A stretch of DNA of 64,000 nt from an uncultured Thermoproteaceae archaeon (GTDB taxonomy: Archaea > Thermoproteota > Thermoprotei > Thermoproteales > Thermocladiaceae), in the NCBI GenBank assembly GCA_964575955.1, contig CAZNTG010000003.1:72662-136661 (forward strand). The letters run 5' to 3'. The notes under the pieces were generated by a model. It was not told the origin of the DNA. It saw nothing but the letters and a program-made list of their open reading frames with translations, and did no database searches. Below are positions 4,574 to 64,000 of the stretch, in pieces; position 1 is the first letter of the stretch, and each line of letters opens with the position of its first letter. A program made the translations under genes and the position numbers.

Positions 4574-5305
4574 TTACCTAGACATGGGGTGATATATACT
4601 ATCCTCATTTAATAAAGATACAGTTTTAATATAGTCTAAATGTGTTCCAATATCGATAACATCATCTTCTAAACATTCTAAATCTATGTAACTAACATTA
4701 ACTTTTCTACTAACAAGCTCTCTAAATAGAATATTCATATCTACCATATCATACATAGTTTCAAGATGTTCCAATATTGGATATATGGCTTCAAGATTTA
4801 TGTAATATATTCCTGATATAGTACTAAATTCAGGTTTTTCAACCCATCTCAATTCTCCATCACTTACAATAATGCCATATTTAAACTTTCTACGTATAGT
4901 AAATATTGTAAGTATACTACCACTATCTATACAAGTTTCAACTTTCTTCATAATATTTTCAATACATCGTTTAGATATGTATAGATCCCCGTTAATTAGA
5001 ATTATGTTCTTAAACCTATACTTCAAATATACATTTTTTAAATGTCCTGCTGTACCTCTTAATTTAGAATCTACTAATGTTTCAACATTTAGATATTTTA
5101 GATATCTTTCGTATGGATATGCGCAATATCCTAATACTATGACAATTTTAGAATCTTTCAATACTTCTCTTATATTTTTCACAATGTTTAGTAATGTGCT
5201 GAATTTTCTAGATATAGGTACGAGAGGTTTTGGTGTTATGTATGTTAATGGTTTTAATCTCTTACCTGCACCTGCTGCTAATACTACTACATCTATAATA
5301 GTTAT
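4574..5305 (-). CDS. Sugar-phosphate nucleotidyltransferase (NTP_transferase), probable ATA/ATT start
   Basis: In-frame LAAGAGKRLKPLTYITPKPLVPI lies upstream of the tracked GTG; GTAG, INGD, EKP and DIGT motifs follow. Confidence 0.85.
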   Translation of the reverse strand: MTIIDVVVLAAGAGKRLKPLTYITPKPLVPISRKFSTLLNIVKNIREVLKDSKIVIVLGYCAYPYERYLKYLNVETLVDSKLRGTAGHLKNVYLKYRFKNIILINGDLYISKRCIENIMKKVETCIDSGSILTIFTIRRKFKYGIIVSDGELRWVEKPEFSTISGIYYINLEAIYPILEHLETMYDMVDMNILFRELVSRKVNVSYIDLECLEDDVIDIGTHLDYIKTVSLLNEDSIYHPMSR

Positions 5306-27258: not shown

Positions 27259-27348
27259 TGGCGCCGGGGGTGGGATTTGAACCCACGCCCCCTGTACGGG
27301 GACGGGATCTCGAGTCCCGCGCCTTGGGCCTGGCTCGGCCACCCCGGC
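27259..27348 (-). tRNA. tRNA-Ser(CGA), CCA encoded
   Basis: Cloverleaf with CGGGA-CT-CGA-GA-TCCCG anticodon arm, long variable arm and GGTTCAAATCC; begins directly after the Mer-like stop codon. Confidence 0.97.
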
Positions 27349-43019: not shown

Positions 43020-43120
43020 TGGCGGGCCCGCCGGGATTTGAACCCGGGACCTACGGGTCTCTCCTCCCATATTGTTGGGATTAAGAGCCCGCCGCTCTAA
43101 CCAGGCTGAGCTACGGGCCC
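43020..43120 (-). tRNA. tRNA-Lys(CTT) with 23-nt intron at 37/38 (43059-43081), CCA encoded
   Basis: Anticodon arm GCGGG-CT-CTT-A|intron|A-CCCGT; complete BHB (CUCU/GGAG helix, UAA and AGA bulges, UCCCA/UGGGA helix). Confidence 0.97.
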
Positions 43121-61939: not shown

Positions 61940-62143
61940 TTAAAATTCTATGATTGTCTTACCCTTACTCTTATATTCTTCAAGTATGCTGTTAGCCCAT
62001 TCAGGTGGTAGTTTAATTACGTATAGATACTTCTTTAATCTAGCCTTCAATTTCACATACTTATCATACCTCTTAACTCTAATCTCATCTGCCTGATCTG
62101 CATATCTCTTCCAGAGTTCTACCAAGAATATCTCCTTAGGCAT
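61940..62143 (-). CDS. rpl38e: 50S ribosomal protein eL38
   Basis: MPKEI..IRVKR..VKLKARLKKYLYVIK. Confidence 0.88.
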   Translation of the reverse strand: MPKEIFLVELWKRYADQADEIRVKRYDKYVKLKARLKKYLYVIKLPPEWANSILEEYKSKGKTIIEF

Positions 62144-62195
62144 CGTATGTTGAAGTTTCTAGGTATAAATAAGCTTTCTCTAAATGATAAAGATT

Positions 62196-62257
62196 GAGTA
62201 CGGCCGCAAGGCTACCTCACTCATTCAGGGGATTTCACACCCCTGTCGTGAGGTAGC
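62196..62257 (-). ncRNA. K-turn hairpin RNA with 3' tail antisense to 16S rRNA h27 (ACA-less H/ACA-like guide)
   Basis: GCUACCUCAC-GA-CAGGGG-loop-CCCCUG-AAU-GA-GUGAGGUAGC-CUUGCGGCCGUACUC; TTTAAATA 29 nt upstream. Confidence 0.85.
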
Positions 62258-62346
62258 TATATCCTCTACGTTTTCCAATATTTAAATTGTTTTTCCTAAA
62301 ATCGAACAACTTATTAATAGGTCTGATATTGGTCTTTGACCTGAGG

Positions 62347-63012
62347 ATGGCTAGAGGACCTAGATATAAGGTTAAGCATAGGAGAAGACGTGAAGGTAAG
62401 ACTAACTACTATAAGAGGAGAAAGATGATTAAAAGTGGTAAACCTAGACTTGTTGTTAGAAAGACAAATTATAGAATTATAGTGCAGGTAGTAACTGCAA
62501 CACCAATAGGAGATTTAACACACGTATGGGCTTCAAGTGATGAATTGAGAGCATTTGGATGGAAAGGAAGTTTAAAGAATACATCTGCAGCATACCTAAC
62601 AGGAATATTAGCAGGACTTAAAGCATGGATGAAAGGTTTTAGAGAAGCTATACTAGACATAGGTCTACACAGACCTGTTAAAGGTTGTAGAATATTTGCA
62701 ACACTTAAAGGTGTTGTAGATGTTGGTATAGAAGTTCCTCATAGTGAAGAGATATTTCCAGACGAATCTAGAATTAAGGGTGAACATATCGCAAACTATG
62801 CAAAGATGTTGAAATCAACAAATGAGGAATTGTATAAGACAAGATTCTCAATATATTTGAAAAATGGTCTAGAACCAGAGAAGCTACCTGAACATTTTGA
62901 AGAAGTTAAAGAGAGAATATTAAGAAGATTTGAAGGTATGTTTAAGAAGATGGGTATAGAACTTCCACCAATACTTAAAGAAGAGGAGAAAGCTATTGCA
63001 GAAGCTGAGTAA
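62347..63012 (+). CDS. rpl18: 50S ribosomal protein uL18
   Basis: [38 protein letters not shown]. Confidence 0.96.
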
Positions 63013-63014
63013 TT

Positions 63015-63470
63015 TTATCTAATCTTTTCAGGTGGTACAATCTTATTAGTTATCAAGTACTGCTTTAAGTGACTTAGATCTCTGAAATATCCACCCTTAG
63101 CCATCCTATACAACTTTCTCCAAGTTTTTGTATCTATAATACCATTATCTTTGAGATATTTTAGATATCTTCTCAACGTTCTAATTCTATTAATCCAAGC
63201 TCTCTTTGGATCTTGTCTTGCAGTTTTTGGACCCTTTCTACTTCCATATCCTCTTCTCCTACCTTTCTTCTTCTTTTCATGTCTAATTCTCCATCTACCT
63301 CTACTATTTCCTTTCTTAGGTTCAACAACAATCAATCCCTCCTTTATTAATCTTCTAACATCTGCTCTAGTTGATACTTCTTCTAACCTTTCCTGTGCTT
63401 CAGGTAGTATTTTAACTCTAGATTCTCCAACACCAAGAATTTCAGCTGCTAATCTCTTTACATCTACCAT
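63015..63470 (-). CDS. rpl19e: 50S ribosomal protein eL19
   Basis: KRLAAEILGVGESRV, GRRRGYGSRKG, LYRMAKGG. Confidence 0.97.
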   Translation of the reverse strand: MVDVKRLAAEILGVGESRVKILPEAQERLEEVSTRADVRRLIKEGLIVVEPKKGNSRGRWRIRHEKKKKGRRRGYGSRKGPKTARQDPKRAWINRIRTLRRYLKYLKDNGIIDTKTWRKLYRMAKGGYFRDLSHLKQYLITNKIVPPEKIR

Positions 63471-63472
63471 CT

Positions 63473-64000
63473 CTACTCACCTCTAGCTTCCTGTATAAGT
63501 TTTTTAACTTCCTCTATATTTGATGCATTCAAAATTTCCATCATATCTCTATATGTTAGATTTATAACCTTGATATTCCTCTCCATAGCCTTCTTAATTA
63601 TCTCTATTCTCTTCCTCTTACTCACTGTAGATGCTATAACTACTGCCTGTCTAGAAGGATCTATCTTATCTAGATCTTCAGGTCTGAAGACTCTAACTAC
63701 TTCAAAACCTGATGGATGTAGACCTCTAACAGCCTTTGGCTGTCTATACCCAACTTTAACCATTGGTGGATAACCCTTCCTCTGATGTCTAATCTTGTTA
63801 TCTAGACCTTTAGGTCTTCTCCATCTCTCCTGTCTCTCAATTCTCCAAAATCTCCACTCATCCATCCTCATCCATCTAGGCTCTCTTCTCTCCATCAACA
63901 TCCTAAGCTTCAACAATCTTCTCTGCTCACTAGGTAACTCACGCTTCAACTTTAACAACAGTCTAAGCTTACTAGCAATTTGCTTAACATCAACACTAGA
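63473..64000 (-). CDS. rpl32e: 50S ribosomal protein eL32 (5' partial)
   Basis: WRRPKGLDNK, GYR.PKAVRGLHPSG; frame is open to the window end. Confidence 0.95.
   Translation of the reverse strand, partial: SSVDVKQIASKLRLLLKLKRELPSEQRRLLKLRMLMERREPRWMRMDEWRFWRIERQERWRRPKGLDNKIRHQRKGYPPMVKVGYRQPKAVRGLHPSGFEVVRVFRPEDLDKIDPSRQAVVIASTVSKRKRIEIIKKAMERNIKVINLTYRDMMEILNASNIEEVKKLIQEARGE

Follow-up and report, generated by a model that had tools for sequence, protein, structure and literature searches.

The solved archaeal H/ACA ribonucleoproteins have a GA stem of 10 layers, counting from the pocket-closing pair up to the second G·A pair, and in them the 3′ guide binds the stretch of target on the 5′ side of the U that is modified (PMC4652768). 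Guide RNAs that depart from the canonical form were first described from Pyrobaculum and were validated in 2024 in one Sulfolobus species only (PMC11077068). Specifically, Pyrobaculum has ten families of H/ACA or H/ACA-like RNAs, eight of them without a lower stem, and the GA stems of its H/ACA-like RNAs range from 8 to 13 layers (PMC4652768). In S. islandicus, four atypical RNAs that bear neither a lower stem nor an ACA box co-purify with Cbf5; deletion of three atypical RNAs abolished the pseudouridines assigned to them, deletion of sR136 failed, and the three that were reconstituted in vitro, all but sR148, were active (PMC11077068). sR148 itself is bound by Cbf5 and is needed in vivo for two 23S pseudouridines, which shows that the architecture works (PMC11077068). 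The guides of this organism pair with their targets over 6–11 bp, the proteins of P. furiosus accept atypical guides, and the eight 16S pseudouridines that the study gives, at U8, U58, U477, U747, U930, U943, U1009, and U1162, include none in helix 27 (PMC11077068). The authors of the 2024 study describe the distribution of atypical guides elsewhere as uninvestigated (PMC11077068).

The present study concerns a locus in a 64,000-nt stretch of DNA from an uncultured archaeon (hereafter, the window). Comparative analysis suggests that its minus strand specifies a small K-turn RNA that is probably an atypical H/ACA-like pseudouridylation guide with a single 3′ guide, the predicted target of which is U905 in helix 27 of 16S rRNA. 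This locus, together with three sister RNAs elsewhere in the genome, extends the same design to an uncultured, AT-rich genus of the Thermoproteales.

Results

Anatomy of the Locus

The window RNA is a single hairpin in which a canonical stem, a 3-nt bulge, tandem G·A pairs, and a noncanonical stem are arranged in the order of the K-turn pattern, followed by a single-stranded tail (Table 1). RNAfold returns the same hairpin, with a folding energy of −31.9 kcal/mol and a z-score of −3.55 relative to 200 shuffles. The 10-bp stem, the K-turn (GA/AAU-GA), and the 6-bp stem that a first-pass annotation had read from the sequence are thus all present, and the TATA box that it had placed 29 nt upstream is found at that distance as a TATA-like element. 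The annotation was also right that the window copy has no 5′ pocket: by sequence inspection, the lower stem, the 5′ guide or pocket strand, and the ACA are all absent. The window RNA contains neither the arrangement of a canonical H/ACA guide, with a lower stem of 7–9 bp closing a bipartite pocket and an ACA 14–16 nt from the upper stem, nor that of a box C/D RNA, with C and D boxes at the ends and a guide 5′ of D/D′.

Table 1. Coordinates and conservation of the elements of the window RNA, and positions of the sister RNAs in the same genome
Feature	Position	Strand	Details	Mean pairwise identity
5′ flank				0.28
TATA-like box TTTAAATATT	62277..62286	−	29 nt from TATA start to stem start (19-nt spacer)	
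Long-stem 5′ strand GCUACCUCAC	62248..62257	−	10 bp, noncanonical side; RNAfold and 7-sequence alignment	0.77–0.79 (long-stem strands)
K-turn 5′-strand GA (2n, 1n)	62246..62247	−	A kept in 7/7; G in 4, U in 3 orthologues	
Capped 6-bp canonical stem, CAGGGG / CCCCUG	62226..62245	−	Strands 62245..62240 / 62231..62226; 8-nt loop	0.41 (loop)
K-turn 3-nt bulge AAU plus GA	62221..62225	−	AAU 62225..62223; GA 62222..62221, unchanged in 7/7	1.0 (3′ GA)
Long-stem 3′ strand	62211..62220	−	Last two bases, GC (62212..62211), able to pair with 16S instead	0.77–0.79 (long-stem strands)
Single-stranded 3′ guide, 15 nt	62196..62210	−	Antisense to 16S helix 27	
A/U-rich stretch with short T runs	62182..62195	−	3′ of guide; putative 3′ end of the RNA	
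3′ flank				0.39
Sister 1	C6:530710-530790 (L041)	−	7-bp stem plus 2 G·A, one spacer base, tail	
Sister 2	C6:~5074-5154 (L130, L132)	−	In 4/7 genomes; conserved 5′ flank and 3′ tail	
Sister 3	C15:23854-23934 (L131, L136)	−	In 7/7 genomes; 23-nt tail almost invariant	

The RNA matches no Rfam family in the search that had been proposed as a check. At gathering scores, Rfam recovers two tRNAs and nothing else from the whole window, and none of its H/ACA families matches at the locus. When E values up to 10 were admitted for positions 62050..62450, leuA-Halobacteria alone was returned, at chance level (11.2 bits compared with a gathering score of 47.9), and was rejected. As a separate observation, the two tRNA matches, at 43023..43120 and 27262..27348 (minus strand), span 98 and 87 nt; because these spans exceed the 71 positions of the model, both tRNA genes probably bear introns.

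Complementarity to Helix 27 of 16S rRNA

The single-stranded tail and the three stem bases next to it form an 18-nt exact antisense to helix 27 in the 16S rRNA of relatives. On the plus strand, the corresponding 18-mer (62196..62213) has a single occurrence in the window and did not arise in any of 100 shuffles. Among 41 genomes searched, it is present without a mismatch in 21 that lie outside the genus, and it falls inside the 16S gene in eight of the nine relatives in which 16S could be located. The target in these relatives reads GGGGAGUACGGCCGCAAGGC-U-G-AAACUUAAAGG, and this is the sequence of helix 27, GCAA loop included. The tail together with positions 62211..62212 would form a 17-bp duplex with 16S, leaving the 18th base opposite the target U. 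Neither 16S nor 23S was found in the window's own assembly (1.52 Mb in 15 contigs, ~33% G+C, 94.7% complete), and no 16S was located in the six congeners either; because none of the seven genomes of the genus has an assembled 16S, the target is read from relatives of other genera. The perfect antisense to helix 27 claimed in the first-pass annotation therefore stands as an exact match to the 16S of eight of nine relatives, the organism's own 16S being absent from its assembly. Among the sequencing runs listed for the locus, none is of RNA. Contigs built from two DNA runs and compared with the 16S of a relative are short and fragmentary and break at helix 27; none of the variants listed for that comparison falls between its positions 2305 and 2541.

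We take the helix 27 tetraloop to be E. coli positions 898–901. In the ninth relative (G007), the match ends after 14 nt, and its 16S carries an insertion directly after GCAA. If this insertion is intron 901, then the last A of GCAA is position 901 and the U that follows GGC is position 905. With this anchor and the tetraloop numbering, the target U would correspond to E. coli 905, and not to a position near 904 as had been proposed.

The G007 insertion (L025/L094) lies inside the stretch with which the guide would pair, and it fits locus 901 (E. coli numbering), which is listed for Caldivirga among the introns of Thermoproteales 16S genes (PMC4496867).

Geometry of the Guide on Its Target

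An unpaired U is found directly 3′ of the paired target stretch in the 16S of relatives, and whether it meets the base of the stem depends on how many stem pairs remain closed. The closed stem, with 10 bp and two G·A pairs, has 12 layers, and its base would face G903, not U. When the RNA is co-folded with the helix 27 fragment, the two bottom pairs open, leaving 8 bp and two G·A pairs, or 10 layers, and a 17-bp duplex forms with the U adjoining it; the duplex is predicted at −37.3 kcal/mol, compared with −9.4 kcal/mol for helix 27 alone. The co-fold thus predicts what had been claimed from the sequence, a 17-nt pairing that leaves the U at the base of a stem of 8 bp and two G·A pairs. Both the 12-layer and the 10-layer forms lie inside the 8–13 layers given for Pyrobaculum (PMC4652768), and the U is at the base in the 10-layer form only.

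The seven copies are informative about these bases. Immediately 3′ of the upper 8 bp, five copies have GC and two have GU, and either dinucleotide can pair with the target GC. At the next base six copies have A and the seventh has U, which shows that a pair with U905 has not been conserved. Wobble or compensatory change has preserved the two bottom stem pairs, which indicates that the free RNA probably has them closed and that binding requires them to open.

Conservation, Covariation, and Distribution

The RNA is present in all seven genomes of one uncultured Thermoproteales genus and always adjoins rpl18; in all six congeners, as in the window, it lies between the divergent rpl18 and a 67-aa gene on its own strand. 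A TATA-like element is seen by eye at a similar upstream distance in all six orthologous loci. In the seven-sequence alignment, standard pairs occupy 97.3% of the pair cells, compared with 40–55% when the partners are slid by 1–3 columns. In the long stem, 98.6% of the cells are paired, and compensatory changes on both sides are seen at five of its 10 pairs; the paired fraction for the 6-bp stem is 95.2%. The covariation score was reached by 0 of 500 shuffles, a figure that is not a probability because the seven sequences are related. Four pair columns contain G·U or U·G, where the plus strand would read A·C; the G·U pairs of the 6-bp stem and the GA/GA tandem are likewise confined to the minus strand. 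Together, these columns and the tandem identify the minus strand as the functional one. The 12-nt guide core, CUUGCGGCCGUA, shows no variation across the genus (mean pairwise identity 1.0).

The genes that flank the RNA yielded additional observations. The 67-aa ORF downstream of the RNA (61940..62143, minus strand) is preceded by its own TATA-like box, is found in all seven genomes, and has a weak match to Ribosomal_L38e (E = 0.0012, below the Pfam cut-off). Just after rpl18, and on the strand opposite to it, are two basic ORFs of 151 and 161 aa (63015..63470 and 63473..63958, minus strand), which by eye look like ribosomal proteins.

To place the organism, we compared its L18 protein with those of other genomes: the nearest come from uncultured Thermoproteales MAGs (73–82% identity), followed by Vulcanisaeta and Caldivirga (58–64%). 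Sister-family members in the same order have intron-bearing 16S genes. From the L18 neighbors and these 16S genes, the organism is a relative of Pyrobaculum at the level of the order.

A covariance model (R1) and guide patterns, searches that would miss a guide of another register or stem, turned up no copy of the RNA in the 55 genomes of the order that lie outside the genus. R1 recovered all six orthologues, and a strict K-turn descriptor recovered four of the six. Across 62 genomes of the order, R1 gave four matches outside the genus, with E values of 0.011–0.065, none of which has the guide core at that place. The one R1 match that overlaps a 12-mer, in G012, lies within a 298-aa ORF, and the structure is absent there (z = 0.29). 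Matches outside the genus to the 12-mer and to the K-turn-plus-guide pattern proved, in the 62 genomes, to be 16S itself or to occur at the rate of the reversed-pattern control, and there was no K-turn hairpin in the contexts of the pattern matches that were inspected (20 and 9 loci); in the sister family, a minority of the K-turn-plus-guide matches were inspected one by one. R1 and the guide patterns found no orthologue in 29 sister-family genomes, and upstream of rpl18 at 80 loci of other lineages no K-turn hairpin with this guide was seen, the copies of the genus being the only ones.

Traces of an ACA Box and Related RNAs in the Same Genome

The state of the ACA box varies among the orthologues. 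Two of the seven (G003 and G006) read ...GUAGACA, with the ACA at positions 16–18 from the base of the 8-bp stem; the 15 nt between the closing pair and the ACA are inside the canonical 14–16 nt. Three of the seven have GCA at positions 15–17. In the remaining two, the window copy and one other, the sequence there is CUC, which complements three more 16S bases, GAG. The Pyrobaculum RNAs present the same spectrum, with ANA, NCA, or nothing at this site (PMC4652768).

A K-turn descriptor scan of all 15 contigs returned 118 matches, nearly all of them AT-rich and chance-like. Four GC-rich K-turn hairpins stand out by eye, the window RNA and three more (Table 1). Over 19 nt, the tail of sister 1 is complementary without a mismatch to the 23S of two relatives; there is one wobble against the 23S of a third, and 13 nt are matched in a fourth. 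Its target continues with U-G-UUUAAC, and the guide is kept in six orthologues. The flanks of sister 2 pair on both sides of a U-G-A in a 16S stretch that is identical in five relatives, and as judged from these sequences the RNA and 16S would form a normal bipartite pocket. By our own count, this target presumably lies near E. coli 16S position 757; it may correspond to U747 of S. islandicus. The tail of sister 3 ends in ACA in six of seven copies, its 5′ flank is not conserved, and its best matches to the 23S of relatives are 10–12 bp only, with wobbles. The sister RNAs indicate that the window RNA is one of a small set of the same build aimed at rRNA.

Protein Machinery

The genome encodes Nop10, two proteins of the L7Ae family, and a Cbf5 of 340 aa with the domains DKCLD, TruB_N, TruB_C_2, and PUA; a Gar1 match is weak (E = 1.1e-4, below the Pfam cut-off). 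Inspection of the Cbf5 PUA domain, which had been suggested alongside the first reading of the locus, found it full and not reduced: the match covers 1–73 of 74 positions, and residues 10–330 of 340 align with the P. furiosus Cbf5 of the solved RNP, with a single one-residue gap that lies outside PUA. Because PUA is complete, the loss of the ACA from the window RNA is not mirrored by a loss in the protein. An intact PUA fits both with the ACA of the RNA on contig C15 (sister 3) and with the acceptance of atypical guides by the P. furiosus proteins (PMC11077068).

Discussion

The first-pass annotation had compared the locus with the single-guide pseudouridylation RNAs of Pyrobaculum, and the comparative data, namely covariation, an invariant guide, the co-fold, the ACA of orthologues, and the sister RNAs, support that reading. 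We consider it probable, on these sequence comparisons, that the RNA is an atypical H/ACA-like guide with U905 as its predicted target. In the mechanism that we envisage, the TATA box would direct transcription of a minus-strand RNA of ~65–75 nt, L7Ae would bind the K-turn, and Cbf5–Nop10–Gar1 would assemble on the stem. The guide would then pair with 14–17 nt of nascent 16S (E. coli 888/891–904), a stretch of helix 27 that comprises its 5′ strand, its GCAA loop, and three bases at the start of its 3′ strand. On pairing, the two bottom pairs of the long stem would yield, leaving 8 bp and two G·A pairs with the 10-layer spacing of the solved H/ACA RNPs, and the next base, U905, which is followed by G, would be presented to Cbf5 and isomerized.

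A K-turn RNP could also serve the folding or processing of rRNA and leave no pseudouridine behind. As a chaperone, it would clamp helix 27 of nascent 16S along its 5′ strand, its loop, and a portion of its 3′ strand, so that this helix, near the central pseudoknot, would form later, and it might act around the intron-prone loci 901 and 908. The length and stability of the duplex (14–17 bp and −30 to −37 kcal/mol, compared with −9.4 kcal/mol for helix 27) are in keeping with such a role; a single duplex of this length far exceeds the 6–11 bp of S. islandicus guides (PMC11077068) and could favor holding over turnover. The closed 12-layer stem, which has no U at its base and the bottom pairs of which are conserved, points the same way, as do the position of the target, which straddles intron locus 901 and places U905 between loci 901 and 908 (PMC4496867), and the lack of a helix 27 pseudouridine among the sites given for S. 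islandicus (PMC11077068). Against the chaperone model stand the U directly after the duplex, a placement that recurs in the 23S-directed sister RNA, and the ACA at the canonical distance in two of seven orthologues. Moreover, another sister RNA is predicted to form a standard bipartite pocket around a U, and the validated RNAs of this build are all modification guides (PMC11077068). On balance, we regard a chaperone that makes no pseudouridine as unlikely. A narrower proposal, to which we assign a still smaller chance, is that an H/ACA-derived K-turn RNP has become a dedicated antisense clamp that would keep helix 27 open while the small subunit assembles, or that acts on the exon junction in the 901/908 region of Thermoproteales 16S, where introns are frequent. 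If this were true, the RNA would be an archaeal counterpart of nonmodifying snoRNAs such as U3 and snR30.

A third alternative is that the hairpin is an L7Ae-binding K-turn element of the downstream L38e-like mRNA, or another cis-regulator, and that its complementarity to 16S is incidental. The RNA is on the same strand as this gene and 52 nt upstream of its start codon, and the synteny holds in seven of seven genomes. A separate TATA-like box, TTATTTATA, nevertheless lies between the RNA and the gene, ~25–33 nt before the ATG, the spacing expected for a leaderless mRNA. Furthermore, the spacer that separates the RNA from the gene has diverged, the 12-nt antisense core has not varied, and sister RNAs of the same build occur at unrelated places, all of which makes a cis-regulatory element very improbable. 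We give next to no credence to the notion that the plus strand, which has the helix 27 sense sequence, functions by imitating helix 27 (to be bound by a ribosomal protein, for example) or that the match is a 16S remnant or due to chance, given that the four G·U/U·G columns and the GA/GA tandem belong to the minus strand, the TATA box is positioned for that strand, the 18-mer appeared in no shuffle, and conservation in seven genomes rules chance out.

If the RNA is, as we favor, a pseudouridylation guide, its closest described relatives are Pyrobaculum sR203–sR210. It resembles them in having no lower stem, an absent or degenerate ACA, and a single-stranded 3′ guide by the stem, as well as in its rRNA target and in coming from the same archaeal order (PMC4652768). 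Its hosts differ in belonging to another family and genus, being uncultured MAGs nearest to Vulcanisaeta and Caldivirga. Among the papers listed by literature searches, none connects pseudouridine guides with helix 27 in archaea, or atypical H/ACA RNAs with Vulcanisaeta or Caldivirga.

The comparison with S. islandicus sR148 is similar: both RNAs have a single 3′ guide and are without a lower stem or ACA (PMC11077068). sR148 targets 23S with pairing down to 6 bp (PMC11077068), whereas the window RNA is predicted to target helix 27 of 16S with 14–17 bp and would attain the 10-layer spacing only after two of its stem pairs had opened. With the canonical archaeal H/ACA RNAs (Pyrococcus Pab/Pf; 2HVY, 3HAX, 3LWO, PMC4652768), it shares a K-turn in the upper stem, a GA stem that can reach 10 layers, a 3′ guide that pairs with the target 5′ of the U, and a genome with genes for Cbf5, Nop10, and L7Ae, Gar1 being a weak match. 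It differs from them in that the window copy lacks the lower stem, the 5′ guide, and an ACA 14–16 nt from the stem. An L7Ae-type K-turn and an rRNA antisense element are also features of box C/D sRNAs; in the window RNA, however, the canonical stem is a capped hairpin with no C/D plus C′/D′ arrangement, and the antisense element follows the hairpin on its 3′ side instead of preceding a D box.

Because of the Pyrobaculum and S. islandicus precedents, the architecture and the mechanism are already known (PMC4652768, PMC11077068). What appears to be new is the lineage in which atypical H/ACA guides are found and the 14–17-bp length of the single-guide pairing. The helix 27 target is probably new as well, as the sites mapped in S. 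islandicus do not include the predicted pseudouridine (PMC11077068); the Pyrobaculum families were compared by their descriptions. The seven orthologues, in addition, capture the ACA box in varied states (ACA, GCA, and nothing) beside a Cbf5 with an intact PUA domain. If confirmed, the RNA would add one more site and one more lineage to a known mechanism, rather than a new mechanism.
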